From a virus (Duplodnaviria > Caudoviricetes), in the IMG/VR virus record IMGVR_UViG_3300032246_001520, positions 1-41,024 of that record: a stretch of 41,024 nt of DNA; one strand, written 5' to 3'. The notes beneath the pieces were generated by a model. The model was not told the origin of the DNA and did no database searches. It worked only from the letters and a program-made list of their open reading frames with translations. The position numbers were made by a program, and so were the translations under genes. Position 1 is the first letter of the stretch, and each line of letters opens with the position of its first letter. Shown here one piece after another: positions 10,284 to 25,402 of the stretch.

Positions 10284-10290
10284 CCAATTA

Positions 10291-10338: not shown

Positions 10339-10359
10339 AATCAACCAATGAGGCTTACT

Positions 10360-10926
10360 ATGCACCCAACCCGCGAGGCTTTTTTAAATGCCGCAGTTGC
10401 TGAACTGCGCCCCCTCTTCGATGCTTTCGAGCACCCACTGCCTGCAAAAATCCGTGTCACTTGCGGTTTTCCTTCCCAGAAAGTGCGCACATTGAACCGT
10501 GCCATCGGTGAGTGCTGGTCTGATCGCGCTTCAACTGACGCGCACTTTGAAATCATGATTAGCCCTGTCGAGGCTGACCCTTACGAAGTTTTTGGCATTC
10601 TTGTGCACGAGCTTTGCCATGCGGCAACGGACGGGGATGGTCATAAAGGGCGCTTCCCTGCCCTGATTCGCAAGCTTTGGCTGGAGGGCAAGCCAACAGC
10701 AACTACTATCGGCACGGCTTTTAGAGTGAACTTCGCTCAGATTATTGACAGTCTGGGTGATTACCCTCACGCCGCCTTAAATGTTCAGGCTTTGCGCAAG
10801 GTTCAGGGCACGAGAATGCTTAAGGCTTCTTGCCCTGCCTGCAAGTACACAATTCGACTGACCCAGAAGTGGGCAGACCTAGGCTTACCCCAATGCCCTG
10901 TTGACGGGCACCAACTTTCACTCTGA
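10360..10926 (+). CDS. SprT-like zinc metalloprotease with C-terminal Zn ribbon
   Basis: LVHELCHA...GH (HExxH), CPAC...CPVD; start moved to ATG 10360 after GAGGCTTA. Confidence 0.8.
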   Translation: MHPTREAFLNAAVAELRPLFDAFEHPLPAKIRVTCGFPSQKVRTLNRAIGECWSDRASTDAHFEIMISPVEADPYEVFGILVHELCHAATDGDGHKGRFPALIRKLWLEGKPTATTIGTAFRVNFAQIIDSLGDYPHAALNVQALRKVQGTRMLKASCPACKYTIRLTQKWADLGLPQCPVDGHQLSL

Positions 10927-10934
10927 GGCTTACC

Positions 10935-12401
10935 ATGAATAGCATACAAAAAGAGCTTGCACTTGTATCACTCGACAAACTGAATGCCGCGCTTGCGGTG
11001 CACGGTGCCCAGCAGGACTCAAAAGCTGACTCGTTGAAAATGGTTGCGATGCTGATTGACGGCGGCAAAATGACTCTGGATGACGTGCATAACGCACAAC
11101 CAACACCTGCCTCTAGAATCTCAAGCGCACCAATTGACAGCGCGACAAAGGCGCAAATTGCCGGTGTGGTTTCAGAAGTTGCATCGGCAGTTGAACAGGT
11201 ATCGACCGTCAAAAACTTAGTAGTGACAGCGCTTGAAACGCTCAACCATCGCACTGCGCAAGATGCAACAGCGCTTGAAAAACTGAGCCGGTCTCTCACT
11301 GCGAAGGTTGATTCAATGCAGGCGGTTGACTACAGTAAGGTATCTGCTGAGATCAGGGCGCAAGTTGCCGCAATCATTGAGCCGTTTAAACGGTCTGCCT
11401 CGCCAGAGGTGTTGGCTGAGATTGCCGCCGCGATGCCTGTCACTGAGCGCCGGCTGGCGCGTGATGTTTTCGACGGAGATCTCTTTTACGACATCGATGG
11501 GGAGCATGTGGACTTTTCAGATTTTCAAGTGGAAGTTTGGAATGACCCTGACGCGCCGCTTGTGTCTGCCGACTATGTGTTCAACCACAAGCACCTGCAC
11601 CAGACCCTGATTGCTCTGGACAGTGCCCTGCCAGACAATATCTGGCTCGCTGGCGAGCGCGGAACCGGTAAGACTGAGTACGTTACACAGATTGCCGCTC
11701 GTCTTAAGCGCAAGCTTGTGCGTGTTAATTTTGACGAGGCTATCGAACGCGCCGATTTTATAGGTGGTAACTCTATCGAAGCGGGTTCGGTTGTCTGGAA
11801 GGCTGGCGTGATTACACAGGCAATCCAACATGCAGGTGCAATCATCATTCTGGACGAGGTTGGCTTCGCTCGCGCCCAGTCAATCGCGGTGTTGCATTCT
11901 CTCTGCGAGCCTTCGCCTCACCGTGCCTTAGTGGTGTCGGAAACTGGTCAGAGAATCCCTGTCGCCCCGCACGTTGTTTTTTTTGGCGCGGACAACTCCA
12001 ACGGTCATGGCGATACCACCGGTAATTTTGCTGGTGTGCGCGATCAGAACACGGCTTTTCTTGACCGGTTCGGGTTTACCCTGCGCTTTGAGTATCTGCC
12101 CTTCAATCAGGAAGCCTCGCTGATTAGCAAGCGCACCAGCCTGCCTTTGCCTGCCGCCGAGGTGTTGGTTGCCTTTGCGAATGTGGCTCGCGAGAGGGCG
12201 CGTATGGGCACTCTGACCCAGCCACCAAGCCTGCGCCAGTTGTTTGCTTGGGCAAGGGCGGTACGCAAGGGCGCACCCGTCAAGATGGCTTTCGAGAATG
12301 CCATTGTCAACAAATTTCCGGCTGACTGCGCCGCTGAGCTTGCGGGTGTCTTCGCCGCAACAGTAGACGTCAACCATTTTAAAAATCAACTGAGAGGATA
12401 A
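10935..12401 (+). CDS. MoxR/CobS/CbbQ-like AAA+ ATPase
   Basis: Walker A GERGTGKT, Walker B IILDE, Arg finger AFLDRF, SLRQL; N-terminal coiled coil. Confidence 0.88.
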   Translation: MNSIQKELALVSLDKLNAALAVHGAQQDSKADSLKMVAMLIDGGKMTLDDVHNAQPTPASRISSAPIDSATKAQIAGVVSEVASAVEQVSTVKNLVVTALETLNHRTAQDATALEKLSRSLTAKVDSMQAVDYSKVSAEIRAQVAAIIEPFKRSASPEVLAEIAAAMPVTERRLARDVFDGDLFYDIDGEHVDFSDFQVEVWNDPDAPLVSADYVFNHKHLHQTLIALDSALPDNIWLAGERGTGKTEYVTQIAARLKRKLVRVNFDEAIERADFIGGNSIEAGSVVWKAGVITQAIQHAGAIIILDEVGFARAQSIAVLHSLCEPSPHRALVVSETGQRIPVAPHVVFFGADNSNGHGDTTGNFAGVRDQNTAFLDRFGFTLRFEYLPFNQEASLISKRTSLPLPAAEVLVAFANVARERARMGTLTQPPSLRQLFAWARAVRKGAPVKMAFENAIVNKFPADCAAELAGVFAATVDVNHFKNQLRG

Positions 12402-12402
12402 T

Positions 12403-13317
12403 ATGGAAGCAATAAACGCAAAGCGCGGGGTCAGCGCAACCTTAGAGCGCGTGTTTCAAGCCTCTGGCAACAAGTTCGGCACACTCAATATTCTGTGGGC
12501 GGGTAGCACCGCCGGCATTTCATCGAAGCGCACGAATCGCGGCTTAGATGCGACTGTATTCTTTCCCACCGTTGACGATCAGTCAAAAGTCAGCCCCGCG
12601 CTTTTCGCCAATCTGATCGGGTTCGCGCTTCATGAACTGGGTCACGCATGGTTCACCGACAATGACTTTTGGGACAAAGCGCGTGAAAACCACGGGAAGT
12701 TTGTGTCTGACCTGATCAACGGTCTGGAAGACCCCCGCATAGAAAAGCGCGTGATTGAATCTGGCTATGCGCCGAACAGCAAAATACTTTTCGAGACCCT
12801 GATTAATTCGATGCTCGACAAGGGCGGTATGCCAGACCCTGATGACTATGCAAACATCCCGTATATGCTCGCGGTAGAGGGCAGGCGTTTAAACGGCTAC
12901 CCAATCAACGTGCCGACAGTTCTTACTGATAAGTGCCCGTGGCGCGATGACCTAGTCTGGGCGCTTGAAGAGGCTCGCGAGGCGGTAAACACAAAAACCA
13001 TCGTTGACATCGCAGTGAATCTCTACAAGCGCTTGAGTAAGGAAAATAAAACGTCCGACAACAAGCCCAGCCCTGACGCGAAGCCTGAAGGCAAACAAGA
13101 AGGCAAACAAGAAGGCAAACAAGAAGGCAAGCCTGACGGTAAGCCTAACGGTAAGTCTGAAAATAAGCATGGCGAGAATAAGGGTAGAGAGCCGCGCAAG
13201 GTTGAACCAACTGCCTTTATTGAGGAAGAGCTAAAGGGTCATAGCACACAGGAAGAACGCACCAATCCGTTCCCCGCAGTGCAAAAACCAAACATCGTTA
13301 AATTCGACTTTTACTAA
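12403..13317 (+). CDS. CobT-N-like HExxH metallopeptidase-type protein
   Basis: ALHELGHAWFT...INGLEDPRIE, followed by a low-complexity GKQE/GKPD linker. Confidence 0.7.
   Translation: MEAINAKRGVSATLERVFQASGNKFGTLNILWAGSTAGISSKRTNRGLDATVFFPTVDDQSKVSPALFANLIGFALHELGHAWFTDNDFWDKARENHGKFVSDLINGLEDPRIEKRVIESGYAPNSKILFETLINSMLDKGGMPDPDDYANIPYMLAVEGRRLNGYPINVPTVLTDKCPWRDDLVWALEEAREAVNTKTIVDIAVNLYKRLSKENKTSDNKPSPDAKPEGKQEGKQEGKQEGKPDGKPNGKSENKHGENKGREPRKVEPTAFIEEELKGHSTQEERTNPFPAVQKPNIVKFDFY
13087..13130 (+). repeat. 12-bp coding tandem repeat (EGKQ)n
   Basis: GAAGGCAAACAA x3 plus GAAGGCAA; degenerate GKPD/GKPN copies follow. Confidence 0.9.
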
Positions 13318-13326
13318 GAGATCATC

Positions 13327-14130
13327 ATGGAATTAGATAAACACACATGCAATGAGGCTTACTTGCAATACTACAATCTGGCGCCGGCTGGTTTGGGTGC
13401 AACCAAAGCCGCACTATCAAAGCTGTTGCGCTCTATCGATCTGGTCGGCTGGTCAACACACGAAGAGACTGGGCGTGTTGACAGACGCGCTTTGACCCGC
13501 TTTGCCACGGGTAGCACTGCGGTATTCTCGCGCCGCGCACATGTTGAAGCTGAGACATCAGCGGTTTCAGTGCTGATCGATTGCTCTGGTTCGATGGCAG
13601 GTCAACTTATCCAGACCGCCGCAGAGGTAACGATTCAACTCTCGCGGTTGCTTGATCAGGCTAAAGTGCCCTTCAAAGTGACAGGCTTTTCGGGTGGCGG
13701 GTCTGCCACTCGTATGGATGGCAGTGGCGCGAACGAAAAAGATACTTACGTGCGAACTGAGCGCGTTAACTTTTTCCCGTTCAAGACTTGGGCAGAACCA
13801 ATGCGCAAAGCTTCAACAAAGCTTGGGGCGATTCGATTTTGTGCAGGCTCATCTACTCCGGACTTCAGCGCACTCAGTCTGACCATCGATGACATCGCGG
13901 CACAACCCCAAACACGCAAGATTATTTTCTTGTTGACCGATGCAGATGGTTATAGCGCAGAACAAATGGAGTTTTTGCAAAGCAGGGCTGAACGCGCCGG
14001 TGTGATTATCATTGCAGTTGGCATCGGCACAACGGCAGTCAAGATGTTCAAACATCATGCAACAGTCAACAAGGTTGAAGACCTTGGGTCAAAAGCTTTT
14101 GGTAGTCTTCTTAAAACAGTGAGGAAATAA
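13327..14130 (+). CDS. von Willebrand factor A (CobT-C-like) domain protein
   Basis: GRVDRRAL, MIDAS motif IDCSGSM, STPD, LLTDAD, AVGIG. Confidence 0.85.
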   Translation: MELDKHTCNEAYLQYYNLAPAGLGATKAALSKLLRSIDLVGWSTHEETGRVDRRALTRFATGSTAVFSRRAHVEAETSAVSVLIDCSGSMAGQLIQTAAEVTIQLSRLLDQAKVPFKVTGFSGGGSATRMDGSGANEKDTYVRTERVNFFPFKTWAEPMRKASTKLGAIRFCAGSSTPDFSALSLTIDDIAAQPQTRKIIFLLTDADGYSAEQMEFLQSRAERAGVIIIAVGIGTTAVKMFKHHATVNKVEDLGSKAFGSLLKTVRK

Positions 14131-14342
14131 TGGACGAACAGTTTGAACACGACATTAATCTTGTTAGAGATATCATCGCGCCGATGGAAGTTGATAACGC
14201 AATACCAATACTAACAACCCTACTCGCAATGCTTGCGGTAGGGGCAGGCGAACCGAAAGATAAAGTACTAGCGTATGTCGTTAGTACGATCTTGCATCAG
14301 TATGAGATTTGCAGAACACCAGATGATGTAACACTTCAATAA
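14130..14342 (+). CDS. Hypothetical early protein
   Basis: 70 aa; GAGGA RBS; overlaps the upstream stop. Confidence 0.7.
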   Translation: MDEQFEHDINLVRDIIAPMEVDNAIPILTTLLAMLAVGAGEPKDKVLAYVVSTILHQYEICRTPDDVTLQ

Positions 14343-14367
14343 CCCGTTTAAACAGTGAGGCTTAATC

Positions 14368-14658
14368 ATGTCGTATACAGTTGCAGTGTTGTTAACTGAC
14401 CGTGCCTTTGGCGGTCACGAAGAAGGCGGTTGGTATTTTGACTATGGATACCGCGTAAGCTTGTCAGAAGCGCCCCAGAGGCGTTTTAAAACCCTAGCTA
14501 AGGCTCAGGGTTACCTTTCTAAATTAGAGGCTGTAATCGCCCGTATTAATGATGGGCGCTATCCTGTAAGTAGTGTTTTATCAGATGGCATTTACCGTGC
14601 TTTTATTTTTAATTCTAAGGTCAAGGGTTATCCCGACACCATTCCCCGTTACGAGTGA
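14368..14658 (+). CDS. Conserved phage early protein
   Basis: DRAFGGHEEGGWYFDYG...SSVLSDG...P.YE; GAGGCTTA RBS. Confidence 0.75.
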   Translation: MSYTVAVLLTDRAFGGHEEGGWYFDYGYRVSLSEAPQRRFKTLAKAQGYLSKLEAVIARINDGRYPVSSVLSDGIYRAFIFNSKVKGYPDTIPRYE

Positions 14659-14666
14659 GGCTTATT

Positions 14667-14906
14667 ATGCAAGTGCTAAAACCAAACACCTATGTACCCC
14701 AAGATCAGCAGTTTCAAATGATGCAGATAACAGAAAAACAGCTTGATGCTGTTGAGTGGGCTTTGCGCCTCGCCCAGTGGGCGATAGATGATCAAGAGCC
14801 ATCCGATCAACGCACTAGTGATCAAGAGGATATCACTGACGCATACAAGGCAATAGCTGATGTCAGATTTTTACATGAGCAATTGACGGGGGGTTCTGAT
14901 GAGTGA
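14667..14906 (+). CDS. Hypothetical early protein
   Basis: Start moved to ATG 14667 after GAGGCTTATT. Confidence 0.7.
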   Translation: MQVLKPNTYVPQDQQFQMMQITEKQLDAVEWALRLAQWAIDDQEPSDQRTSDQEDITDAYKAIADVRFLHEQLTGGSDE

Positions 14907-14992
14907 AGACCTTAAAACATCTTGTGAAATGAAGGTCATTAATTTTGAATTGAACAGCAACAAGACCCCATTACGAGTGAAAAAGGACTGAT

Positions 14993-15193
14993 ATGAAATA
15001 CAAACGCGTATGGGTTGAGGGTCATTGGAATGACACTAAAGAACCCTTTTTTGCACAGTGCCAGATCGGCATGAAAATACCGCCCGATGATGATGACGTG
15101 TTTTATTTTTTTGATTGGAACGAGACGTTGGTCGGCAACAAGGGTGACTTTACTGTCACTAAACATTTACCAATTTTTTATTGCGAGCTTTGA
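14993..15193 (+). CDS. Hypothetical early protein
   Basis: 66 aa; AAGGA RBS; DDDDVFYFFD motif. Confidence 0.7.
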   Translation: MKYKRVWVEGHWNDTKEPFFAQCQIGMKIPPDDDDVFYFFDWNETLVGNKGDFTVTKHLPIFYCEL

Positions 15194-15194
15194 T

Positions 15195-15482
15195 ATGGAC
15201 AATAAACGCATAGTGGATTTTTTACGCAACTCAGAAAAAGAGTTTTTGATTGAACAGCTACTGGGGTTCGCCCCCACCTCGGCGCTTATGAAAATGTTGC
15301 CTGAGCGCTTCATTGTAGATAAGTGGTACACCTCAGATGTACAACAGATGCGAGATGACCTGACAGATGATCAGGCTTGGGAAGTGCTGACGCATGTAAA
15401 GAGATGGCACGATGCCAGTGTTGGTATTAACTGGGATGTGATCGAATCAGCCGCTGATGAACTTTTCCCGAGGAAATCATGA
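15195..15482 (+). CDS. Hypothetical early protein
   Basis: Start MDNKR at 15195; W..DV..R.DLTDDQA.EVL...HDA..GINWD.I pattern. Confidence 0.7.
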   Translation: MDNKRIVDFLRNSEKEFLIEQLLGFAPTSALMKMLPERFIVDKWYTSDVQQMRDDLTDDQAWEVLTHVKRWHDASVGINWDVIESAADELFPRKS

Positions 15483-15568
15483 GCAAACTAGACTGGCTTG
15501 GTTTCGCGCTTTACATCGCGGTCGCCCTGTTTTTTATTGATTGGATTATTGATATCGTTATTTCCTGA
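15479..15568 (+). CDS. 29-aa membrane peptide
   Basis: Not in track. GAGGA RBS, ATGA overlap; MSKLDWLGFALYIAVALFFIDWIIDIVIS. Confidence 0.55.
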   Translation: MSKLDWLGFALYIAVALFFIDWIIDIVIS

Positions 15569-15573
15569 CCAGT

Positions 15574-15609
15574 TCCCCCCTTCCCGCTTGGGTTGGGGGG
15601 ATTTTTTTT
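15574..15609 (+). terminator. Rho-independent terminator closing the early operon
   Basis: TCCCCCC...GGGGGGA stem followed by T8. Confidence 0.85.
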
Positions 15610-15659
15610 GCCTGCGCAAATTGCTCAGCGTTTAAACGGTCTGATGCATCAGAAGCAAT

Positions 15660-17339
15660 TTAGAAATCATCGAAAATTTCAAAATATGAACCGGTGATTT
15701 TGTTGTACCCAAGCTTGGTCTCGCCCTGAGTTCCTACCCACCGGTAACGGCACTTCCACACTGCGACTTCTACGTCGTTATGCTTTGTGCGATGAATGGT
15801 CATGCCATTGTCTGCCTTTGCCCACCACGCCATCGATCCTGAAATTGCCATACCATCAGGGCGGGGCAAGTCCATCCCAGATCGAGTGATCTTAGCGGGA
15901 TGCGCTACAAACCACACATGCACTCCGTACATCTTTGCAAAGGCTTGAACACGCGTCAACATGCTTGAAATGAACTCTGTTTCAGAGGTCTGGCTCTTGT
16001 TGTCAATATAGTTATAGGGGTCAACAACCAAACCCCGAATGCCCATGCGAGCCACTGCAACCGCCGCACGTTCCAAAATAGATTCTATGGTCGAAGGCTC
16101 GACGGTCTCAGAGTCCAAAAACATAAAATGTTCTTCAACCCATTTAAACGCTTTGTCTTTTTCATCTTGGGTCATGCGTTCTGTGCCTTCAAAAAATCTT
16201 TTACCGCTGTAAAGTTCCATTAACCGGCTGATATGGATTTCGGGCTGATTCTCGAAGGAGCACAAAGCAAATTTCCAATCATGTGTTCTGCCCAGATTAA
16301 CCATAAGCTGGTCAACAAAATTTGATTTGCCTGAGCTTGGGTATCCAGTCACAATAGTTAACTGACCTTGTGCGACAGTGTAGATTTGATCGACGTTGGA
16401 ATAACCGGTCGAGGTGCCTTTCCCGGTTCCTTTACCCCATAGGTCGTTTAAACGGTCTGTGAACTTACTGGCGGATGATAATCCTGCAACTGGATAAGGC
16501 TCAGCACGGGCAATAATGTCTTTGACCTCGTCTGCGCCCTTATCTAGAAAAGCTTCGTTCAAATCCTTGTAATTGAATTTAGCCACCCTGCAACGGTCTT
16601 TGCCTATTCTTCGTGCGAGTTCTTCTGCGAGTGCCTGACCTGCTGAGTCGGTGTCTGTTGCAATGACCACATGGGGTGCGGATTTAAGGATCTCGTTTGC
16701 TGACCAGACAAAAGCAAACTTTCGGTCTTCTGATGCATCGATCTTACCGTCAACAACTTTCATCGGTGCGCCTGAAGGGACAGACAAAACATTCGGTATG
16801 CCTGCTTCCATTAGAGTCAGGGCGTCGATCTCGCCCTCAACGATCACCACTGGAAGGGCGGTGTCGATTCGATCAATCCCAAAAAAGTCCTGTGCCCCAC
16901 CCTGATCTTGAGTAAAGTCCTTGGATTCAATGCTTCTGTATTTAGCTGAAGTAAGTACGCCGTTCTTGTAATAAGGAAATGCGACGGCGTCTGTGATCTT
17001 GTTTAAACGGGCAAAGTATTTCTCTGCCGCAAAAACCTGTGCATTCTGTGCGGTTTCCTGAGAGATGCCTCGGTTCTTTAAGAATTCAATGTGCTTGGGT
17101 TGAAGTGCGTTCATTGCTATGGGTTTCATCATTGGAATCACATTATTCTTCTTTGTGTTGGGGTTAAAGGGCAGTAAGCCGTGCGCGGTACAGTGATGAC
17201 AGTGCCACACCCAGCCCTTATCGCCACGAGTTACCACGCAGTCTTTTTGATTGTGTTTTTTTCGCTCGTGCGAGCATTCCGGACAGGGAATCCTCCCTGA
17301 GTCACCCCGCAGGTGACTGATAGATTCTGCAACGTTCAT
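15660..17339 (-). CDS. Twinkle/T7 gp4-like primase-helicase
   Basis: Zn finger CPEC...CHHC, TOPRIM IVEGEIDAL and DTD, SF4 helicase GYPSSGKS, VVDP, VAHP. Confidence 0.93.
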   Translation of the reverse strand: MNVAESISHLRGDSGRIPCPECSHERKKHNQKDCVVTRGDKGWVWHCHHCTAHGLLPFNPNTKKNNVIPMMKPIAMNALQPKHIEFLKNRGISQETAQNAQVFAAEKYFARLNKITDAVAFPYYKNGVLTSAKYRSIESKDFTQDQGGAQDFFGIDRIDTALPVVIVEGEIDALTLMEAGIPNVLSVPSGAPMKVVDGKIDASEDRKFAFVWSANEILKSAPHVVIATDTDSAGQALAEELARRIGKDRCRVAKFNYKDLNEAFLDKGADEVKDIIARAEPYPVAGLSSASKFTDRLNDLWGKGTGKGTSTGYSNVDQIYTVAQGQLTIVTGYPSSGKSNFVDQLMVNLGRTHDWKFALCSFENQPEIHISRLMELYSGKRFFEGTERMTQDEKDKAFKWVEEHFMFLDSETVEPSTIESILERAAVAVARMGIRGLVVDPYNYIDNKSQTSETEFISSMLTRVQAFAKMYGVHVWFVAHPAKITRSGMDLPRPDGMAISGSMAWWAKADNGMTIHRTKHNDVEVAVWKCRYRWVGTQGETKLGYNKITGSYFEIFDDF

Positions 17340-17352
17340 TAAGCCTCCCGCA

Positions 17353-17631
17353 CTACTTCTTTTTAGGTTTATTTATTTTCACAGACCGGTCTGAATTTCG
17401 GCTGAAAGATCGATTCGCGCTTGGCGATTTCAGCTTTAAGTTCTTTGGTGCGTTTGTTCCTCCTTTTGAAAGCGGCACGACATGGTCTATGTCTTTGCCT
17501 GATCTGTCAACGCCCTTGGCGTCCATTGCGTATCGTGCGCGTTCTCTTGCATTTCGGGAAGGCTGTTCGCCACGGGCTTTTTGAAGCGCGTACTCGCGCT
17601 TATACGGTCTTGGTTTGTTGACGTAGGGCAT
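17353..17631 (-). CDS. Small HNH endonuclease-like protein
   Basis: DIDHVVPLSKGGTNAPKNL...N; basic. Confidence 0.8.
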   Translation of the reverse strand: MPYVNKPRPYKREYALQKARGEQPSRNARERARYAMDAKGVDRSGKDIDHVVPLSKGGTNAPKNLKLKSPSANRSFSRNSDRSVKINKPKKK

Positions 17632-17839
17632 TCTGTTCCTCGATCCTCGATGCGTCCATTTTTTCTGTGATCCAGAACCCTTTGCTGTTCTTGGACATTC
17701 CTATTTCCAGCATCTCGTCAACGTTTAAACAACGCCTGTGACCGTGGTAGTCGCCTGTTCGGTGCATGTCAAAGCCCGAATTAGAATTGAAGTATTGCTT
17801 ACATCCTTGGCACTGATTTCGATTGCCGGTAAGTTCCAT
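17600..17839 (-). CDS. FDXHR-type zinc-binding phage protein
   Basis: CQGC...F...GFDMHR...RRC...KGFW; GAGGCTTA RBS. Confidence 0.75.
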   Translation of the reverse strand: MELTGNRNQCQGCKQYFNSNSGFDMHRTGDYHGHRRCLNVDEMLEIGMSKNSKGFWITEKMDASRIEEQNALRQQTKTV

Positions 17840-18171
17840 ATTAAGCCTCTAAAAAGTTAATGTAAACCCATGAATCAAACGCACATGCTGTTTACAAATA
17901 CAAAAAAACTTCAGGGTTACAGCAAGAACCTTTCTGGGGACTATAAAGACCATTTACAGCCCCTTCGGGAACAATAAAACCTCACCCGTATAGACGGGTC
18001 AAACCAATTTCTTGGCGATGCTCTCGTTTATCTAAGCTAATCTTTCGATCTGGGTTTTACACAGGCTGTTAAGACCTCTTGCCCCATTCGCTACGTTTAT
18101 CTGTATCTGTCGCATCCACATTTACAAGGGGTGGGTTATGCCCCCGTTTCACCAGTCCGTAACAGCAAACA

Positions 18172-18266
18172 AAAAGCCCTGTTAAGGAGGCTTTAGGCTT
18201 GGTTGCCACTTACAGCAGACACCAGATTGTCTTACTGTAGCTTTGACGAAGCCGCCTTAACAGGGC
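18172..18266 (-). ncRNA. C4-like (P1 c4 / P4 CI type) antisense RNA
   Basis: Closing stem GCCCUGUUAAGG-C-GGCUU / AAGCC-U-CCUUAACAGGGC plus U tail; internal hairpins with loops AUCUGG and AACCAA; complementary boxes found upstream and downstream. Confidence 0.7.
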
Positions 18267-18321
18267 GTTCTATTCGTTATCTGGAACTACTGATGGGTTA
18301 CCAAGCCATCAGATGGTTCAC

Positions 18322-18349
18322 ATAATAAACGAATTTAAAATATTTGCAA
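18322..18349 (-). promoter_or_regulatory. Sigma70 promoter for the C4-like RNA/primase operon
   Basis: Minus strand TTGCAA-16 bp-TATTAT. Confidence 0.65.
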
Positions 18350-18556
18350 CTACTCTATATTCAATTGCTCACCATCACGAACCATTTCAACTGGTACGCC
18401 AGAGGTCAGATGTTCAATCAGGTCATCTTGTGTTGCCACTCTGACGGTGAACATGCTATTTGCAACGTGATTCAAAGCCTGCGAACGAATGCTTGCTTTG
18501 ACCAAACGCACCTTACTATCAGGTGTGCCAATTAAATAAACTCTTTGATTTGCCAC
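18350..18556 (-). CDS. Conserved small phage protein
   Basis: RVYLIG...RLVKASIRSQALNHVA...VRVATQDDL; GTG start at 18556 after CAACTGGGGA preferred over TTG at 18577. Confidence 0.7.
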   Translation of the reverse strand: MANQRVYLIGTPDSKVRLVKASIRSQALNHVANSMFTVRVATQDDLIEHLTSGVPVEMVRDGEQLNIE

Positions 18557-18735
18557 AATTTCCCCAGTTGATTCCAACGAAACAGGTTTACTATCCTCTT
18601 GCTTGCAATCAAGTGTCTAGAATTGACCGCTTTCCGCTTTGGACAAGGTAAGGCTTGTACATCGCCCTGCGAGCCTGCTCGTTGGAAGAATTATTATAAC
18701 ACGAACGTTCGCTGTCTATCGTTTAAACAGTGGTT

Positions 18736-18775
18736 CTTATTGGCACTTATTGATGCTTATTGATACGTGTTGATA
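18736..18775 (+). repeat. Four tandem 10-bp direct repeats
   Basis: CTTATTGGCA CTTATTGATG CTTATTGATA CGTGTTGATA. Confidence 0.8.
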
Positions 18776-18777
18776 TG

Positions 18778-18806
18778 TACACAAACGAACGTATGTGGAC
18801 TATAAT
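18778..18806 (+). promoter_or_regulatory. Promoter of the candidate small RNA
   Basis: Perfect TATAAT at 18801-18806; weak -35 TACACA 17 bp upstream; no plus-strand ORF before the terminator. Confidence 0.6.
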
Positions 18807-18811
18807 ATACG

Positions 18812-18890
18812 AACTCGACAGAAATAAGCCTCCAGTTGGGTAACGACTTTCAGGGTCGGTAAAGCCTCCTACACGGAGGCTTTATTTTTT
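18812..18890 (+). ncRNA. Candidate anti-Shine-Dalgarno small RNA
   Basis: Promoter, then seed AAAUAAGCCUCCAGUUGG, hairpin CGAC/GUCG, then terminator AAAGCCUCC-UACAC-GGAGGCUUU-AUUUUUU. Confidence 0.65.
18861..18890 (+). terminator. Rho-independent terminator
   Basis: 9-bp stem AAAGCCTCC/GGAGGCTTT with a T6 tail on the plus strand; overlaps the rusA stop codon. Confidence 0.8.
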
Positions 18891-19235
18891 CTGCACCATA
18901 ATTTCTGTGCGTGGGTTTTCTTTATCAAGACCCCAGTAAATATGCTTTTCTTTTACCTGTCGGTCGTTTAGGTAAGTCACGCCCTGCAACAGGTCAAGTA
19001 TCAGGCTTTCATCAAGGTCAGGTCTTCGCGATGCATAGTAAATACGCATAATTACCACCACATCTTCTGTGAACGGTTCGTATCCTAGCTGCGCGGTTTG
19101 CTGTTTAAACGCATCGGTATAAGTCAAGGCTTTTTCTGATTTGATCAGCCTAGACAAGCCGCCAAACCTAACTAATCTTCGACTATTACTCTTTGATGCA
19201 GGCTCGCCTAAAATAGTTAACGAAAGCGCTTGCAT
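18882..19235 (-). CDS. rusA: RusA-like Holliday junction resolvase
   Basis: GEPASKSN...RRPDLDES.ILDLLQG..Y.NDRQV...NPRTEI. Confidence 0.85.
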   Translation of the reverse strand: MQALSLTILGEPASKSNSRRLVRFGGLSRLIKSEKALTYTDAFKQQTAQLGYEPFTEDVVVIMRIYYASRRPDLDESLILDLLQGVTYLNDRQVKEKHIYWGLDKENPRTEIMVQKK

Positions 19236-19258
19236 TATTATTTTCCTTTTGCTATTAT
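19230..19258 (+). promoter_or_regulatory. Sigma70 promoter of the recombination operon
   Basis: TTGCAT-17 bp-TATTAT with extended -10 TGn. Confidence 0.75.
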
Positions 19259-19282
19259 TTAATTTCCTAACGGAGGCTTAAA

Positions 19283-20170
19283 ATGGAAATCACTAATATA
19301 CACGGGTTGCCCGAAACCCTCGTTGCCGCCTGTAAACTTAACAACTACAGCAAAGGCAAGTCCGACTACTCGGTGACTGAGATTATGTCACCCCCGCGCA
19401 TTCAGCGCTTGCGCCAAGCTCATTATAAAGACATGAAACAAGATGTCGTTGACATGTTGTGGTCGGTCATGGGCACTGCCATACACACCATGATGGAGCG
19501 TACCGATCTCAAAGGTCACACCAAAGAAGAGCGTATTTACTATGAGATCGACGGGGTTGTTCTGTCCGGCGCAATTGATTTGCAGACCGAAAAAGACGGC
19601 TCAGTTGAGATCACCGACTACAAGTTCACCTCTGCGTGGGCACTGCGAGCCGACAAGATAGAGTGGATACAGCAACAAAATATCTATGCTTGGCTTATTC
19701 ACAAGACTTCTGGCAAAAAGATTCATGGTTTGCGCATTTGCGCAATTATCAGGGACTGGTCTCGCCGTGAGGCAATGAACAATCCCAACTACCCACAAGG
19801 AAACGCGCAGATTGTGCATATCCCGCTTTGGGACTTTGATAAGACGGAAGCTTATGTGCGTGAGCGTTTAGAGCTTCACCGTTTAGCCAAGGTTCAGGCT
19901 GACTGGGGCGAAGAATTGCCTTTATGCACTGACGATGATCGCTGGGTGCGCGAGACCAAATATGCAGTGAAAAAGGAAGGGCGCAAGACGGCTGTGCGGG
20001 TTTTTGACACAGAAGACGAGGCGCAGGCTTTATTGGCTGAGATGCCACCCAAAGATAAAGGTTTTATTGAAATCCGCGCAGGAGAACCTGTACGGTGCAC
20101 CGGCAACTTCTGTGGGGTTGCTAAGTGGTGCTCACAATTTAAACAGGAGAATGAAAATGGTATGGACTAA
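19283..20170 (+). CDS. PD-(D/E)XK exonuclease (Cas4/RecB-like)
   Basis: GTAIH, E...LSGAID...ITDYK, QQNIY; C-terminal Cys cluster RC..FC....C.Q. Confidence 0.82.
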   Translation: MEITNIHGLPETLVAACKLNNYSKGKSDYSVTEIMSPPRIQRLRQAHYKDMKQDVVDMLWSVMGTAIHTMMERTDLKGHTKEERIYYEIDGVVLSGAIDLQTEKDGSVEITDYKFTSAWALRADKIEWIQQQNIYAWLIHKTSGKKIHGLRICAIIRDWSRREAMNNPNYPQGNAQIVHIPLWDFDKTEAYVRERLELHRLAKVQADWGEELPLCTDDDRWVRETKYAVKKEGRKTAVRVFDTEDEAQALLAEMPPKDKGFIEIRAGEPVRCTGNFCGVAKWCSQFKQENENGMD

Positions 20171-20498
20171 AGTGATTTTGCCTTTGGCGAGAAACACTGA
20201 CCCCGAAACTTCTTTTGAAGCGGCGCGGGATGCATCATTCAAAGCTTCAGCGCACCGAATGCTTGCCCTTCAGGCGTTGAGCCAAGGGGCAATGACGGAT
20301 TTTGAATTAGCTGATGTGACTAGGCTTCAGCAGAACAGTATTGGCAAGCGCCGCAAGGACTGCCAAGACGCTGGCTTAGTCACAGTATTAAAGGACTCGG
20401 ATGGCAACAACGTAAAGCGCCCCGCACCCTCTGGGAGCAAAGCTTTGGTTTGGACGCTAACTGAGAAAGGCAAGAAGTTTTTACAGGAGCAGTTATGA
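20157..20498 (+). CDS. Winged-helix DNA-binding protein
   Basis: ARNTDPETS...MTDFELA...KRRKDC..AGLV...SG..ALVW; start at ATG 20157 after AGGAG. Confidence 0.65.
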   Translation: MVWTKVILPLARNTDPETSFEAARDASFKASAHRMLALQALSQGAMTDFELADVTRLQQNSIGKRRKDCQDAGLVTVLKDSDGNNVKRPAPSGSKALVWTLTEKGKKFLQEQL

Positions 20499-21154
20499 AT
20501 ATTTATGGAAAACTACAGCTATCCCGAAGTAAGTTTTTGCAGACTGACATTAAAAAGTCTGGCAAAAATAAATTTGCAGGTTATGAGTACTTTGAATTAG
20601 GTGATTTTATCCCTGCAATTAATACAATTTTTACGGAAATTGGTTTGTGCGGGGTGGTGAGATTTACCCCTGAAGTGGCGTCATTGACAGTTTATGACGT
20701 TGAAAGTGATTCAGCTATCGAGTTTACAAGCCCGATGGTTTTTGCCAATAACCCAAAAGGTCAGGCAATTCAAGATCTAGGCAGTACACATACTTATTTG
20801 CGTCGCTACTTATGGCTGATGGCAATGGAAATTGTTGAGCATGATGCTGTGGATGCCGCCGCACCTATTGATGCACCACGCAAAGCAGAACCAAAGGAGA
20901 TGCCGCGCAAAGAAGAACCAAAGCAAGAAATAAAAGCTGATCCTAAGCCCGCAGGAGCCTCTGATGATCAAAAGCTTTTTGTAGACAAGCTGATTGAATG
21001 GGCGGCTGTTCAGACCAACCCCAAAGAATTGATCAGTGCTTGGCAAGCAAACCAGAAGCAAATTGACGAACTTAAAGTTTCAGACCCTGAGCTGTTTAAA
21101 CATCTTAAAACCTGCTTTAGCGAATTAAAAGCTAAGGTAACAACCAAGGAGTAG
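20495..21154 (+). CDS. erf: ERF-family single-strand annealing recombinase
   Basis: KSGKNKFAGYEYFELGDF...QDLGSTHTYLRRY...D.VD. Confidence 0.88.
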   Translation: MNIYGKLQLSRSKFLQTDIKKSGKNKFAGYEYFELGDFIPAINTIFTEIGLCGVVRFTPEVASLTVYDVESDSAIEFTSPMVFANNPKGQAIQDLGSTHTYLRRYLWLMAMEIVEHDAVDAAAPIDAPRKAEPKEMPRKEEPKQEIKADPKPAGASDDQKLFVDKLIEWAAVQTNPKELISAWQANQKQIDELKVSDPELFKHLKTCFSELKAKVTTKE

Positions 21155-21157
21155 TGC

Positions 21158-21445
21158 ATGGATTACGACAAACCTTATGAAGTGCCGCCAAATTCTGGCT
21201 CGCTGTTTCAAAACAAAAGCAAGGCTAAGGAAAATTCACCTGATTACAGCGGTGAGGTTCTCATCGATGTCAAAACGCTTGTTGTTGAAAATGGCGTTGC
21301 AAAGATGCGTTTGGCGGGATGGAAAAAAAACTCTAAATCTGGGTCAACGTTCCTTTCCCTTAAGATCAGCCCACCAATGCCCCAAAAGGCTTCGCGCCCC
21401 CGCGCAGATAGCTTTGAGGACATGGAAGATGACGTGCCGTTCTGA
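21158..21445 (+). CDS. Putative ssDNA-binding protein (DUF736-like)
   Basis: GSLF.N...PDYSG...AGWKK...FLSLKI; acidic C-terminal tail EDDVPF. Confidence 0.78.
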   Translation: MDYDKPYEVPPNSGSLFQNKSKAKENSPDYSGEVLIDVKTLVVENGVAKMRLAGWKKNSKSGSTFLSLKISPPMPQKASRPRADSFEDMEDDVPF

Positions 21446-21879
21446 TGGGAGCCACAATGCAAAACGATGAAGGGGTTCCCCACTTCGAAGCGATTAAAGT
21501 TGCCTTGAAGCAAGACTCATCCGGCTTTGTATTGACCTTGAGAATACACCCCGATGAAATCAACGAAGAAATTATGCGTGATTTTGTCGGGTCTCGTTAC
21601 GCAGTTGCAATGGCTAGGATCAACGACGATGAAACAGCCACGCACTACGAAAACAGGGTCAAGAAAGCAGGGATGCTTTGCCGCACACGCGAGTTCCAAG
21701 TTTGGCTTAATGAGCTGGGTCACATAGAGGGCAAGACAGAGGAAGAAGCTATCGACGCGCTATATGAGATTTGCGGGATTAGCTCAAGAACCGAACTCAA
21801 TGGGAAATCGGGTGCCAAGGAAAGATTCGACAACATGGTGAATGAATATGAACAATGGAAGAACAGTGAACCGTTCTAA
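21445..21879 (+). CDS. Conserved phage hypothetical protein
   Basis: FEAIKVALKQ...AGMLCR...CGISSRTEL; coupled to the upstream gene. Confidence 0.7.
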   Translation: MGATMQNDEGVPHFEAIKVALKQDSSGFVLTLRIHPDEINEEIMRDFVGSRYAVAMARINDDETATHYENRVKKAGMLCRTREFQVWLNELGHIEGKTEEEAIDALYEICGISSRTELNGKSGAKERFDNMVNEYEQWKNSEPF

Positions 21880-22180
21880 CAAACCAAAACTTAAAGCCGT
21901 CATGATTTACCTAGACCCTTTCGAGGCCGCAAGGCTATCTGAATATGCTGACAAGGAATGCACCTCTGCGTCAAAGATCGCACGAGAGGGAATTCAAATG
22001 CGTATGCGAGACAAGTTTGACCAGTACGTGACCGGGTTCAATGACGGTTTAAACGAGGCGCTGCGCGTTGCAGCAACCTCAAAAGGGGGGCAGATGATGT
22101 TTCCCTCGGGCAAGTCTTTTTCTCAGCTGGTTTGTGAGGATATTGAAAAGCTTAAAAAACGAAATAAGGTGGATTCATGA
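21842..22180 (+). CDS. Hypothetical protein, possible ribbon-helix-helix N-terminus
   Basis: VMIYLD...RL..YA......SKIAREGI; exact start uncertain. Confidence 0.6.
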   Translation: MNMNNGRTVNRSNKPKLKAVMIYLDPFEAARLSEYADKECTSASKIAREGIQMRMRDKFDQYVTGFNDGLNEALRVAATSKGGQMMFPSGKSFSQLVCEDIEKLKKRNKVDS

Positions 22181-22371
22181 ATGATGAAGACCTAAGAGAT
22201 TTATTTGCTGCATTTGCAATGATCTCCAAGGCATGGATTCCTCCAAATATTGAAGACCATGCAAAAAACTGCTACCTCCTAGCAGACGCAATGATTGAAG
22301 CAAAGCATCAAAAAGATTTGCCCGACGAGGGCATTGTCAGTGTAGTTAATAAGTTTAAACAAGAGGCTTAA
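22177..22371 (+). CDS. Conserved small phage protein
   Basis: LRDLFAAFAM...AKNCYLLADAMIEA. Confidence 0.72.
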   Translation: MNDEDLRDLFAAFAMISKAWIPPNIEDHAKNCYLLADAMIEAKHQKDLPDEGIVSVVNKFKQEA

Positions 22372-22373
22372 TT

Positions 22374-22739
22374 ATGGAAGCAATACAACTGAAGGCTGTC
22401 GAAAAGGCTGTTGATCTGTTAAAGGCGGCAGGCGTTAAATTCTATATTGATTTTTGTGATGGGCACGTTATTAATCACGGTGATTTAATTATTCAGCAAG
22501 AACTTCCACCAACCGGTCGCAAGGGTCTCACTGCACCTTATGGTTTTTTTGCTCAATTTTTAATTGAAGCAGGCATAGAGAATGTCAAAGTTAATGAGGT
22601 GCTTATTATTGATCCTAAAGAGCACCCTGTTCAACGAATTCGTGGCATGGCGGCTTCATACGGAAGCAAGCACTGGGGCAATGGCTCGTACATTACAACC
22701 GTTGAAAATGGAAAGGCTCAAATTTTAAGGATTAAATAA
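22374..22739 (+). CDS. Hypothetical protein
   Basis: 121 aa; GAGGCTTA RBS; WGNGSYIT...ILRI. Confidence 0.72.
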   Translation: MEAIQLKAVEKAVDLLKAAGVKFYIDFCDGHVINHGDLIIQQELPPTGRKGLTAPYGFFAQFLIEAGIENVKVNEVLIIDPKEHPVQRIRGMAASYGSKHWGNGSYITTVENGKAQILRIK

Positions 22740-22888
22740 TGGAATCTTTTTTGACCGCTAAAGACTCAACATTTAAGTACAACCCAGTTACGGATGTTCA
22801 GGCTGTCTGGAAAAAATATGGCTGGGAACCGCCGTCTTCGTACCGCAATGACTATCTGTTTAAACAAAATAGGGAGATGCTTGCGTGA
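22739..22888 (+). CDS. 49-aa hypothetical protein
   Basis: Not in track. AAGGA RBS; MESFLTAKDSTFKYNPVTDVQAVWKKYGWEPPS... Confidence 0.65.
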   Translation: MESFLTAKDSTFKYNPVTDVQAVWKKYGWEPPSSYRNDYLFKQNREMLA

Positions 22889-23022
22889 AATATCTTATTG
22901 GGCTATTTATATTTGCTACAGCTCATGCGGATTGCACAACCCAGACCGTCGTAAAAGAAGGTCGGGTTGTTATTTGCACAACATGCTGTGATTCAGGAAA
23001 TTGCACAACCATCTGTAACTAA
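22885..23022 (+). CDS. Secreted six-cysteine mini-protein
   Basis: Not in track. GGGAG RBS, GTGA overlap; MKYLIGLFIFATAHA then DCTTQTVVKEGRVVICTTCCDSGNCTTICN. Confidence 0.7.
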   Translation: MKYLIGLFIFATAHADCTTQTVVKEGRVVICTTCCDSGNCTTICN

Positions 23023-23031
23023 GGGGGCAAT

Positions 23032-23250
23032 ATGAAATATGACGCAATTGACGCTGAGATTGAAAAGCTTCATCGGCGGCTTAAAAGCATTAACAACAGA
23101 CTAAGCGAGATGGGCAATGAAAAGCGCCCAATGTCAATCGAGCCAATGTCGCCAGAATATTTTGCAGACAACAATAAGAAGTTTGACGATGAGTATGAGG
23201 TTAATTTTGGTCGCAGACCGCTTGGCACGGAGGGTCGCAATGAGAGTTGA
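23032..23250 (+). CDS. Hypothetical protein
   Basis: 72 aa; AGGGGG RBS. Confidence 0.65.
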   Translation: MKYDAIDAEIEKLHRRLKSINNRLSEMGNEKRPMSIEPMSPEYFADNNKKFDDEYEVNFGRRPLGTEGRNES

Positions 23251-23371
23251 ACTCTATTTATTTGGCACATGGTGTGCCGTAATCTTAATTTACAAGTGGT
23301 GGCTATATGGTCAAGAAAAAAAATATATCAGAGACACTGAGCAACAAAAATGGGACGCAGCCCGTCACTAA
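23240..23371 (+). CDS. Small membrane protein
   Basis: GGAGG RBS; MRVELYLFGTWCAVILIYKWWLY... Confidence 0.55.
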   Translation: MRVELYLFGTWCAVILIYKWWLYGQEKKYIRDTEQQKWDAARH

Positions 23372-23466
23372 ACCGTTTAAACCTTTTACGCTGGCAGCTG
23401 CCATACGCCGACGATCCTCTATCGAAAGCGCACCAAGCTTAATTGGTGGTGTGCGTAGGAATAATG

Positions 23467-23646
23467 ATGAACAAGAAATATTGCACAGGTTGCCAACAAA
23501 TAAAGAGCCTCGAAGGAGGTCAAAAGCTTAAGCGAGGGCGAATAATCCGCTGGATGTGCGCAGTTTGTATTGATAAGAAAAGCCCGTCGATTTATGCAAA
23601 AAAAATCCCGGAAGAATCAACGTTTAAACAGGCTGATCATGACTGA
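23467..23646 (+). CDS. Small zinc-finger protein
   Basis: KYCTGCQ...RWMCAVC; AGGA RBS. Confidence 0.6.
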   Translation: MNKKYCTGCQQIKSLEGGQKLKRGRIIRWMCAVCIDKKSPSIYAKKIPEESTFKQADHD

Positions 23647-23848
23647 AGATGAAGAGTTTGAAATCCTTGAAGCAAGAATTGCCGCACAGGAACGAGCAAA
23701 GATTGTCGAAGAGTATATGCACCGTGCTGTATTAGAAGCGCAACGGTTTGTTGAAAATAATCAAGCTGATCTTGGGATATTCACTTTACGCAAAGCGTTT
23801 GAGGTTGGGTACCGCTTAGGCTGGGCACATGCAAAGGAAGAGCGATGA
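23639..23848 (+). CDS. Hypothetical protein
   Basis: Start MTEDEEF; overlaps both neighbours. Confidence 0.6.
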   Translation: MTEDEEFEILEARIAAQERAKIVEEYMHRAVLEAQRFVENNQADLGIFTLRKAFEVGYRLGWAHAKEER

Positions 23849-24045
23849 ACAACACACAACGAATATTACGCGCATTGGAATGCGGGTTTTTTATGACGCA
23901 TCAAGAGCAAGAAGAAGCCGCTGATTTAATCCGCACATTAATGTATGAAAACGACAGGATGAAGGCAAGAATCATTGAGGCACTAAAACACTTGCAACTT
24001 GGCACAGAACTTGACGTAAACCAAGCGATAAAGGATTTGAAATGA
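23845..24045 (+). CDS. Hypothetical protein
   Basis: EAADLIRTL motif; ATGA overlaps. Confidence 0.6.
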   Translation: MNNTQRILRALECGFFMTHQEQEEAADLIRTLMYENDRMKARIIEALKHLQLGTELDVNQAIKDLK

Positions 24046-24242
24046 GCAATTTTGGGAATGCGCCTATTAAAAACGGGGGTATGCAGGTTAGTTACGGGCA
24101 CCCAGAAGGGTATGTGTATATAAAACCACAGATTAGTACGATATACATTGAGCGCCGTGTACCAGTCGAGCTTGAAGATGATGTGCATAAGTTGATTGAC
24201 GATTGGTTGAAATCAAAAGGCTTTGACCCGAGGATTATATGA
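24042..24242 (+). CDS. Hypothetical protein
   Basis: 66 aa; AAGGA RBS; ATGA overlaps. Confidence 0.6.
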   Translation: MSNFGNAPIKNGGMQVSYGHPEGYVYIKPQISTIYIERRVPVELEDDVHKLIDDWLKSKGFDPRII

Positions 24243-24463
24243 ACGAACGAACTAAAGAGTTGGCTGAACAAGCGGGCGTGATTAGCGGCTTTAAAGACCT
24301 ACACCCTAACATAATTAAATTTGCAGAGTTAGTCCGGCAAGATGAACGTGAAGCTAATGCAAAGTTTCTCGATGACTTTGCCAAGACCCAAATGGTTCCT
24401 GTGAAAGATACATGGCGCATGGGTGTGATGGCAGCGGCTAATGCCGTGAGGGATAAAAAATGA
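24239..24463 (+). CDS. Modular small protein (MNERxKELAEQAG type), copy 1
   Basis: MNERTKELAEQAG...KFAELVRQDEREA. Confidence 0.7.
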   Translation: MNERTKELAEQAGVISGFKDLHPNIIKFAELVRQDEREANAKFLDDFAKTQMVPVKDTWRMGVMAAANAVRDKK

Positions 24464-24771
24464 ACGAGCGAATTAAAGAACTTGCTGAACAAGCGGGGTT
24501 TCATATTGCTAAAGCATTTAACGGTATTGGATGGTTATGGTGTAGTGATGAGTATCCAATTGACGAGGAACTTGAACGCTTTGCCGAGCTAGTGCGGCAG
24601 GACGAAGCAAAAGCCTGCGCCGAGCACTACCTTGGCATTATGCGTGATGCGGTTGAGCAGGCCGTGCTGAAAGAACGTGAGGCTTGTGCGAAGGTGTGTG
24701 ATGACTGGCTTGTTGGGCGTGATGACATTTGCGAGGTAGCTAAAGCAATCAGAGCAAGGGGTAAAGAATGA
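24460..24771 (+). CDS. Modular small protein (MNERxKELAEQAG type), copy 2
   Basis: MNERIKELAEQAG...RFAELVRQDE...EREACAKVC...AIRARG. Confidence 0.7.
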   Translation: MNERIKELAEQAGFHIAKAFNGIGWLWCSDEYPIDEELERFAELVRQDEAKACAEHYLGIMRDAVEQAVLKEREACAKVCDDWLVGRDDICEVAKAIRARGKE

Positions 24772-24983
24772 AAATTAACCAACCTATATTTGATTTACCT
24801 ATCTGCGATGTCTGCAATAAACCTGTTGAGTACATGGATGCTCGCAATGATATAAATTTTGATGCTCGCATATTCAGGGTGAGGTGCCATGGTGAAACGC
24901 AAGAAGTTGCGCTTAGTGCCTTGACAATGCTTGATTGTGAAATAACCCCAGCACGAGCTTTTGTTAAAGAGAGATTGTTATGA
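24768..24983 (+). CDS. Small Cys/His protein
   Basis: PICDVCNKPV...RCHG. Confidence 0.62.
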   Translation: MKINQPIFDLPICDVCNKPVEYMDARNDINFDARIFRVRCHGETQEVALSALTMLDCEITPARAFVKERLL

Positions 24984-25402
24984 ACCGTGAAATCCTACAG
25001 CAAGCGTTGGAAGATATTTGTGGAGCAAAATTATGCGAAATAAATTCAATGAGTAGCAGACACGAAATGATACGCTTAATGGATAACGCCATTGCAATAC
25101 TTAAAGCAGAGTTAGCCAAGCCTGAGCAAAATAAGCCTTTGAGATTATCACCGATGTACGAATATGGGCATATATATGATTCTGCACAACCTGAGCAAGA
25201 AATAATGCACATGAACACAGGCAGGCGACTGTCGGGCGCTAAAAATCCGTGGGTAGGGCTGACGGATGAGGAGATTGTTGGTTTATATCGCCAAATTGCA
25301 GATTGTAAAGAGTGGGCTATTGGCGGTCTTACACACGCTCTGCCTTTTGCCCATGCAATCGAAGCCAAATTAAGGAGTAAGAACGGTGACTCCACTCGTT
25401 AA
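24980..25402 (+). CDS. Modular hypothetical protein
   Basis: LQQALE...LAKPEQ...WVGLTDEEI...FAHAIEAKLRSKN. Confidence 0.68.
   Translation: MNREILQQALEDICGAKLCEINSMSSRHEMIRLMDNAIAILKAELAKPEQNKPLRLSPMYEYGHIYDSAQPEQEIMHMNTGRRLSGAKNPWVGLTDEEIVGLYRQIADCKEWAIGGLTHALPFAHAIEAKLRSKNGDSTR

Follow-up and report, generated by a model that had tools for sequence, protein, structure and literature searches.

A candidate small RNA whose seed changes together with the ribosome-binding motif of early genes in a family of uncultured phages

The window analyzed here, a stretch of 41,024 nucleotides that makes up one entire phage contig (estimated to be ~66% complete), carries next to a RusA-like resolvase gene a predicted RNA of ~80 nt, the loop of which is exactly complementary to an extended ribosome-binding motif, GAGGCTTA, placed on the phage's own early replication and recombination genes at eight start sites spanning three operons (Table 1). 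Judged from the comparison of related phages, in which the seed of the RNA and the start sites change together, the unit is a real, conserved, and co-evolving element. We consider it quite likely that the RNA represses early sites of its own type by antisense pairing, when a timing role and the exclusion of kin are taken together, and we propose that, on balance, it probably acts in trans as a timer or negative feedback that shuts off the early replication genes as a group.

Near-complete relatives of this phage measure 56 to 64 kb. The minus strand of the window carries the structural and packaging genes, and positions 10110 to 26859 form an early/middle block, in which the primase-helicase operon runs leftward and the RusA gene diverges from an exonuclease-Erf-SSB operon. 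Based on RusA scans, which gave an estimate of ~1,300 viral and ~2,700 metagenome stretches, the family is large and uncultured; the MAG bins of relatives, binning being weak host evidence, are betaproteobacterial (n = 2) and archaeal (n = 1). In a set of 17 genomes consisting of the window and 16 near-complete relatives, one encodes a tyrosine integrase and none encodes a serine recombinase, ParA, or a CI-type peptidase, and by gene content the family looks lytic and mostly devoid of integrases. No antirepressor was found among the 57 proteins of the window, itself ~66% complete.

Table 1. Positions of the predicted RNA unit, of its convergent neighbor, and of the start sites that match its seed
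Feature	Position in window	Strand	Basis or support
Sigma70-type promoter; −35 TACACA (18778-18783), 17-nt spacer, −10 TATAAT (18801-18806)	18778..18806	+	Sequence
Predicted small RNA, ~80 nt, three hairpins	18812..18892	+	5′ end placed from the −10 box
5′ stem-loop presenting the seed; arms 18813-18819 and 18835-18841	18813..18841	+	Predicted fold
Seed UAAGCCUCC, complement of GGAGGCUUA	18825..18833	+	Near-invariant core in alignment A2; covaries with own start sites
Small second hairpin	18844..18858	+	Fold; GAC..GGUC-like hairpin in most clade members
Intrinsic terminator and U-tail; stem 18860-18884, T-run 18885-18892	18860..18892	+	Overlaps the opposite-strand RusA stop codon
RusA-like resolvase gene; convergent neighbor, positional marker, nontarget	18882..19235	−	0/28 RusA starts match at 8 nt
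Core target site, primase-helicase (17339-15660)	17340..17347	−	21/23 orthologues match own RNA at ≥8 nt
Core target site, AAA+ ATPase, CobS/MoxR-like (10935)	10925..10932	+	14/15 orthologues; Pfam AAA_5 and CbbQ_C
Core target site, PD-(D/E)XK exonuclease (19283), first gene of the recombination operon	19273..19280	+	18/27 orthologues at 8 nt; 23/27 at 7 nt
Site before 10360 (SprT-like, weak Pfam match)	10350..10357	+	3/13 orthologues
Site before 14368	14357..14364	+	1/3 orthologues
Site before 14667, 10-nt match	14657..14664	+	Sequence match
Site before 17839 (zinc-binding domain protein)	17842..17849	−	1/6 orthologues
Site before 22374	22363..22370	+	2/2 orthologues

Among 80 relatives chosen by RusA protein alone, 72 carry a unit of the same build immediately past the RusA stop codon, consisting of a −10 box followed by a short body and by a terminator on the plus strand. 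When loci from an exonuclease scan and from a pattern scan, the latter selected for the motif, are added, the unit is found in 94 of 105 RusA-bearing loci; 7 lack a terminator (2 of them at a contig edge), L007 (no unit), L020 and L027 (truncated), and L127 (another hairpin) were dropped, and four loci were re-pointed by hand to a nearer hairpin. A held-out set of 80 metagenome loci, 5 of which were too short, yielded the unit in 59 of the 75 usable loci by script and in 4 more by model. The 75 distinct unit bodies have a median length of 75 nt, and a −10 hexamer (TATAAT, TAAACT, TACACT, TACAAT, or TATACT) stands in position in 61 of the 75, some of these assignments being possibly due to chance as the unit finder takes the best TAnnnT; in the window's clade, 17 of 27 units have a −35 box with at least 4 of 6 matching bases. 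A run of the CUCC, UCCU, or CCCC type is present in 74 of the 75 bodies, AGCCUCC in 28, and CAGUUG in 30, and the window's body is the only one to contain both of the latter motifs. In a quick tree of the 75 rows, the AGCC(U/C)CC units form one supported clade that includes the window, with the exception of L139, which was left out of the clade analyses. Of the 52 matches of the pattern scan, those adjacent to RusA were kept and the rest were treated as chance. A scan with the exact 15-mer first proposed as the seed was discarded, its 57 matches lying nearly all in unrelated contexts and those in L020 and L027 being the exonuclease start site of a relative. Model R1, which covers the window's clade only, had no match in the cultured phages Pag-Yong1 (first 50 of 65 kb) and HTVC023P (first 30 of 61 kb); in Pag-Yong1, RusA is directly followed by a gene.

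The unit is present in a single copy in the window (model R1), and the predicted RNA folds with a z score of −4.0. Its promoter and intrinsic terminator enclose no ORF of at least 40 amino acids on the plus strand, which at the sequence level is the arrangement of a trans-acting small RNA that occludes ribosome-binding sites, and its predicted fold presents an unpaired pyrimidine-rich seed, as in RNAs of the RsaE type. The predicted unpaired probabilities are 0.94 to 0.98 for UAAGC and 0.31 to 0.88 for CUCC, with a median of 0.77 for the seed across 27 members of the window's clade, and the CUCC run of the other clade reaches 0.96. The initial annotation had placed the −10 box, the seed, the hairpin, and the terminator as we find them, but its 15-nt seed is not single-stranded throughout: GUUGGGU (18835-18841), with an unpaired probability of at most 0.09, is predicted to pair with 18813-18819. 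As a consequence, the ~11 targets that it had attributed to one continuous seed are reduced to 8 well-supported sites. The 5′ stem was tested by arm swaps since MAFFT with RNAalifold recovered terminator pairs only; the native arms fold better than 90% of the chimeras in 16 of 28 clade members, and in several other clade members the stem is weak or absent. Of note, in the UGAGCC units L121, L142, L184, and L186 the second hairpin also has a CUCC-rich loop, possibly a second anti-Shine-Dalgarno site.

The window contains 13 copies of GAGGCTTA against 1.4 expected, making it the most enriched 8-mer apart from GTTTAAAC and overlapping words. Eight copies are early-gene start sites, and, as previously reported for the eight named genes, all stand 0 to 3 nt upstream of the ATG; one copy is the seed, one precedes a 4-codon ORF, and three are intragenic in coding sequence. 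Of the 37 early starts, 8 are preceded by the motif, compared with none of the 18 late starts (P = 0.04), and chance alone would place ~0.009 copies in the 55-nt gap that holds the seed, even if the density is taken as observed. A plain duplex ranking of the 55 starts of the window placed four of the eight sites at ranks 1 to 4 and the other four at ranks 11 to 18. The copy before the 4-codon ORF (9392-9399, minus strand) lies just ahead of the terS start and may represent a ninth site or translational coupling.

The initial annotation anticipated that the seed and the enriched motif would covary in related phages, and they do. With start windows called blind to the RNA and windows overlapping the unit removed, the natural seed variants define four genome types (the window's, UUAGCC, UGAGCC, and UAAGCCCC), and the seed/site pairs of the window's clade are UAAGCC with GAGGCTTA, UUAGCC with GAGGCTA, and UGAGCC with GAGGCTCA. 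In pooled tables uncorrected for kinship, the 14 genomes with seed UAAGCCUCC have 38 starts with GAGGCTTA, 7 with GAGGCTA, and 0 with GAGGCTCA; these numbers are 0, 13, and 0 in the 8 genomes with seed UUAGCCUCC and 0, 1, and 9 in the 5 genomes with seed UGAGCCUCC, and the one genome with seed UAAGCCCCC has 3 starts with GGGGCTTA and 1 with GAGGCTTA. Outside the clade, GAGGCTTA occurs in 0 of 1,602 start windows from 46 genomes. The held-out replication gave 10/1/0, 0/5/0, and 0/0/1 from 4, 4, and 1 loci, respectively, one locus sharing the RNA of L118. At the orthologous primase, ATPase, and exonuclease starts, the site varies in step with the cognate seed, and 0 of 25 Erf starts match their own RNA at 8 nt or more. 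A tree of RusA plus exonuclease implies 7 seed changes and 6 primase-site changes, and a primase tree implies 5 of each; the independent pairs are concordant in 2 of 2 and 3 of 3 cases, numbers that are both too small to reach significance (P = 0.5 and 0.25). The clearest cases are L077 and L195, in which the hairpin and terminator of the subclade are kept and the seed and three start sites changed together; L183, L196, and L067 have imperfect pairs. A like pattern with other seeds is seen in the other clade (e.g., L153, L171, and L128), some rows of which include self-matches. Several distant start regions are complementary to the RNA and kept so by compensatory change, as expected of an RsaE-like small RNA. 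In L020, L027, and L118, the gene that diverges from RusA has a start site complementary, without a mismatch over 15 nt, to the seed plus arm of the window; the RNA of L118 itself has a different arm from the window's, and the main exonuclease match of this locus begins at a distance of ~800 nt from RusA, which points to an insertion within the gene.

The additional matches described at 10110, 12403, and 18556 (minus strand) are present as written, but the second class of ribosome-binding site (CAACTG) built on them is unsupported, and we rejected it: 11 of 965 start windows carry it where the RNA contains CAGTTG, compared with 13 of 1,577 where it does not (P = 0.53), and no association was seen between the base following the seed and the one preceding GGAGGCT (P = 0.29). 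The half of the 15-mer matching CAACTG is unsupported as a seed because it forms a stem arm. In the 12403 family, 5 of 16 orthologues match their own RNA at 8 nt or more, and the window's 12403 is not among them. The L118 orthologue of 18556 bears the main motif, and the window's 18556 may be a target by alternative pairing. The CAGUUG of the other clade (mostly GCAGUUG; 30 of 75 bodies, e.g., L133, L140, and L168) stands before or after the pyrimidine seed, and no enrichment of own targets was found for GCAGTTG at phage starts.

Over 17 genomes, in which early and late genes were assigned by position and strand, not by expression, 68 of 674 early starts match the cognate RNA at 8 nt or more, compared with 5 of 685 late starts. 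The bias persists when GGAG/GAGG starts only are considered (61 of 398 early and 5 of 314 late), showing that stronger Shine-Dalgarno sites are not the explanation. At 7 nt, late starts match their cognate RNA in 2.5% and noncognate RNAs in 6.0% of cases (P = 1e-4), an avoidance as expected if late genes must escape the RNA. The cognate RNA outperformed dinucleotide shuffles (P < 0.05) in 11 of the 17 genomes; the remaining 6, all from the other clade, have 0 to 1 matches and did not exceed the shuffles.

Several other motifs were noticed around the unit. By far the most over-represented 8-mer of the window is GTTTAAAC (82 counts on both strands versus 4.5 expected; 41 sites), which is common in relatives (L001 to L007) and which in the other clade often supplies the −10 box TAAACT of the unit. 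The palindrome CGAACGTTCG is found at 8565, upstream of the operon of a LexA-domain gene (8229-7999, minus strand), and at 18702, in the facing leftward promoter, and a half site lies at 18786 in the spacer of the RNA promoter. In 9 of 27 clade members, GAACG occurs at most 45 nt away from the −10 box, compared with 1 of 48 other units and a background of 9%, and this palindrome, as a candidate operator, hints at transcriptional control of the unit. A second candidate operator, the palindrome GCTCA-N4-6-TGAGC at most 150 nt upstream of the −10 box, is found in 8 of 47 other-clade units (including L134, L145, L161, L168, L169, L170, and L187) and in 0 of 28 units of the window's clade. Four TTG(A/G)-type repeats, with a spacing of ~10 bp, lie at 18739-18779 in the region that separates the two divergent promoters. 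Upstream of the primase operon lies a strongly folded leader (18150-18330, minus strand; z = −6.0) with a terminator-like long stem at its end, compensatory changes in L003 (9270-9440, minus strand), and no Rfam match, a candidate attenuator.

Our current working hypothesis is that host sigma70 polymerase likely makes the RNA and that the RNA would pair with the target sites and block their translation as a group. By analogy with known small RNAs, pairing over the Shine-Dalgarno sequence and the spacer would exclude the 30S subunit, and specificity would be conferred by the stretch separating the Shine-Dalgarno core from the start codon, whose bases are not read by the 16S tail; given that a duplex of 8 to 10 bp is short, Hfq may be needed. 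In what is the weakest step of the scheme, the RNA would accumulate from entry and with genome copy number and would thereby act as a timer or negative feedback. Synthesis of the primase-helicase, the exonuclease, and the ATPase would then end, freeing ribosomes for the motif-avoiding late genes. Of the two purposes initially put forward, early shut-off fits better than a lysogeny repressor, given the near absence of integrase and the lack of serine recombinase, ParA, and CI-type peptidase in the 17 genomes, and we favor a timer or negative feedback because the family looks lytic.

The same pairing and repression could instead serve to exclude kin, in that an incoming phage of like motif would have its replication genes silenced by the resident's RNA, or to maintain a carrier state in starved cells, the seed/ribosome-binding-site pairs defining immunity groups. 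The repeated joint switches of one seed and several sites suggest diversifying selection, the targets are what an incoming genome needs first, and the c4 sequence underlies the heteroimmunity of P1 and P7 (accessible text of PMC12197685). We nevertheless regard this purpose as rather unlikely, since the gene content gives no sign of a stable prophage state, since variants only 1 to 2 bases apart and the common AGCCUCC make cross-repression likely, and since drift via wobble intermediates also yields covariation.

It is improbable that the RNA is mainly an anti-Shine-Dalgarno sponge directed against host mRNAs, with the phage matches being secondary. Such a role would account for the pyrimidine run of nearly all bodies and for the seeds of the other clade, which match the common AGGAGA-type site in genomes several of which have few targets of their own, but the bases beyond the Shine-Dalgarno core covary with the phage sites, and the motif is missing from late genes, which are read by the same ribosomes.

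A reading in which a protein (a RegA-, RegB-, or CsrA-like or a DNA-binding regulator) recognizes GAGGCTTA, the locus being a minus-strand decoy or an extra site, also appears improbable to us. In its decoy form, read-through from the RusA 3′ end would display the motif in a loop. G-U oppositions outnumber A-C oppositions by 27 to 3, which favors the plus strand, and both the −10 box and the T-run face plus, although the design of the finder accounts in part for the direction of the T-run. When the 5′ stem is folded on its own, the minus strand has a slight advantage in 17 of 28 members and the plus strand in 9 (22 versus 4 with a shorter open loop setting), and the folding energies of the whole unit fail to distinguish between the strands (42 of 75; P = 0.10), but in the window the stem forms on plus only (−5.8 versus 0 kcal/mol). 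The evidence is mixed for the 5′ stem and, as far as sequence features go, favors plus for the unit as a whole. In decoys of the CsrB/RsmZ type, the transcribed strand exposes multiple sense GGA motifs in loops, whereas here the plus strand is the complement and there is one looped motif, on the minus strand. Protein-bound sites would also change in concert, and T4 RegB cuts GGAG in early start regions (accessible text of PMC3014915), but the locus is one copy and no array, and a candidate protein was not found among the annotated proteins of the window.

That the unit is a functionless by-product, namely, a terminator beside an inverted or decayed copy of a repeated ribosome-binding module spread by recombination, seems very improbable. 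Copying between sites may happen, as suggested by the L118 and L020 exonuclease starts with their perfect complement of the window's seed plus arm, and a minus-strand ATG or GTG lies within 12 nt of the seed in 11 of 27 clade members. However, the ORFs that follow have 2 to 77 codons with no shared length, 16 of the 27 members, the window included, have none, and no minus-strand ORF beneath the seed is conserved across the clade, which argues against the decayed ribosome-binding site of a lost minus-strand gene that the initial annotation had considered; moreover, the fixed place and direction, the compensated stem, and the avoidance by late genes would not be expected of a by-product. The least probable reading is that the RNA activates its targets by opening or stabilizing the start region or by delivering them to ribosomes, for although an RNA with a sigma70 promoter would be made early alongside its targets and phage small RNAs can activate, as PreS does on dnaN (accessible text of 10.1101/2024.10.31.621285), the match covers the Shine-Dalgarno sequence and spacer 0 to 3 nt from the start codon, and in the available accounts of RsaE and c4, pairing at this place prevents initiation. 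The unit overlaps just the RusA stop codon and does not correspond to a cis-encoded antisense RNA of the sar or OOP type.

To our knowledge, the group-wise shut-off of early translation in phages is the work of proteins (T4 RegB and RegA), and the antisense repressors known from phages have a single target gene. The closest functional analogue is indeed the T4 pair of the RegB endonuclease and the RegA repressor, which shuts off early mRNAs as a group at their start regions and eases the early-to-late transition (accessible text of PMC3014915); these proteins cut or bind, whereas recognition here would be by RNA base-pairing. The c4 RNA of phages P1 and P7 (RF01695), of 77 bases according to a reference title in PMC8546580, is likewise a phage-encoded trans-acting RNA of similar size, with looped complementary sequences that cover a ribosome-binding site and a tie to P1/P7 heteroimmunity (accessible text of PMC12197685). 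In contrast to c4, which controls one antirepressor transcript of a temperate phage, the unit matches eight scattered start sites in three operons, has its own terminator, and belongs to a mostly integrase-free family. In the window and 7 relatives, no Rfam 15 family matched at gathering score, RF01695 (c4) and c4-a1b1 included (0 matches), and RF01695 is not among the 6 weak Rfam matches at E values up to 10. By its sequence, the unit is one that would work like a C-rich-loop small RNA or c4 but is not a c4 member. In Staphylococcus, the unpaired C-rich motif of RsaE binds several mRNAs and prevents formation of the initiation complex (accessible text of PMC2790875); unlike those of this bacterial RNA, which are generic Shine-Dalgarno sites, the targets here carry a private extension that changes with the seed, both being in one phage genome. 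Other phage RNAs steer development, namely, P22 sar, lambda OOP, and aQ (PMC12197685) and lambda PreS and VP882 VpdS (10.1101/2024.10.31.621285); as described in the accessible text of these sources, the first three have a single phage gene each as their target, PreS is directed mainly at host mRNAs and VpdS at those of both host and phage, and none is described there as matching a shared phage ribosome-binding motif. Our literature search, which took in the accessible text of PMC8546580, PMC2864571, and PMC10690425 and covered supplements and subscription papers incompletely, found no phage RNA matched to a shared, co-evolving early ribosome-binding site, in line with the initial view that the arrangement is undescribed. 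Short motifs gave no match in 4 of the 6 supplementary text files of PMC10690425, and the motif could be among the candidates of that study.

An RNA that addresses a self-made regulon via a co-evolving ribosome-site code would constitute a new layer of phage developmental control. The natural seed/site variants are ready-made cognate and noncognate pairs, which makes the idea testable in E. coli reporters without the phage, and such pairs could serve as compact orthogonal translation switches. More tentatively, and as a speculation that we hold to be possible, the replication genes may bear a private translation address to which one RNA is the key, address and key being repeatedly rewritten together because the RNA also silences co-infecting kin. 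If true, this would amount to RNA-defined exclusion groups, without a repressor protein or a prophage state, in a widespread and apparently lytic family.
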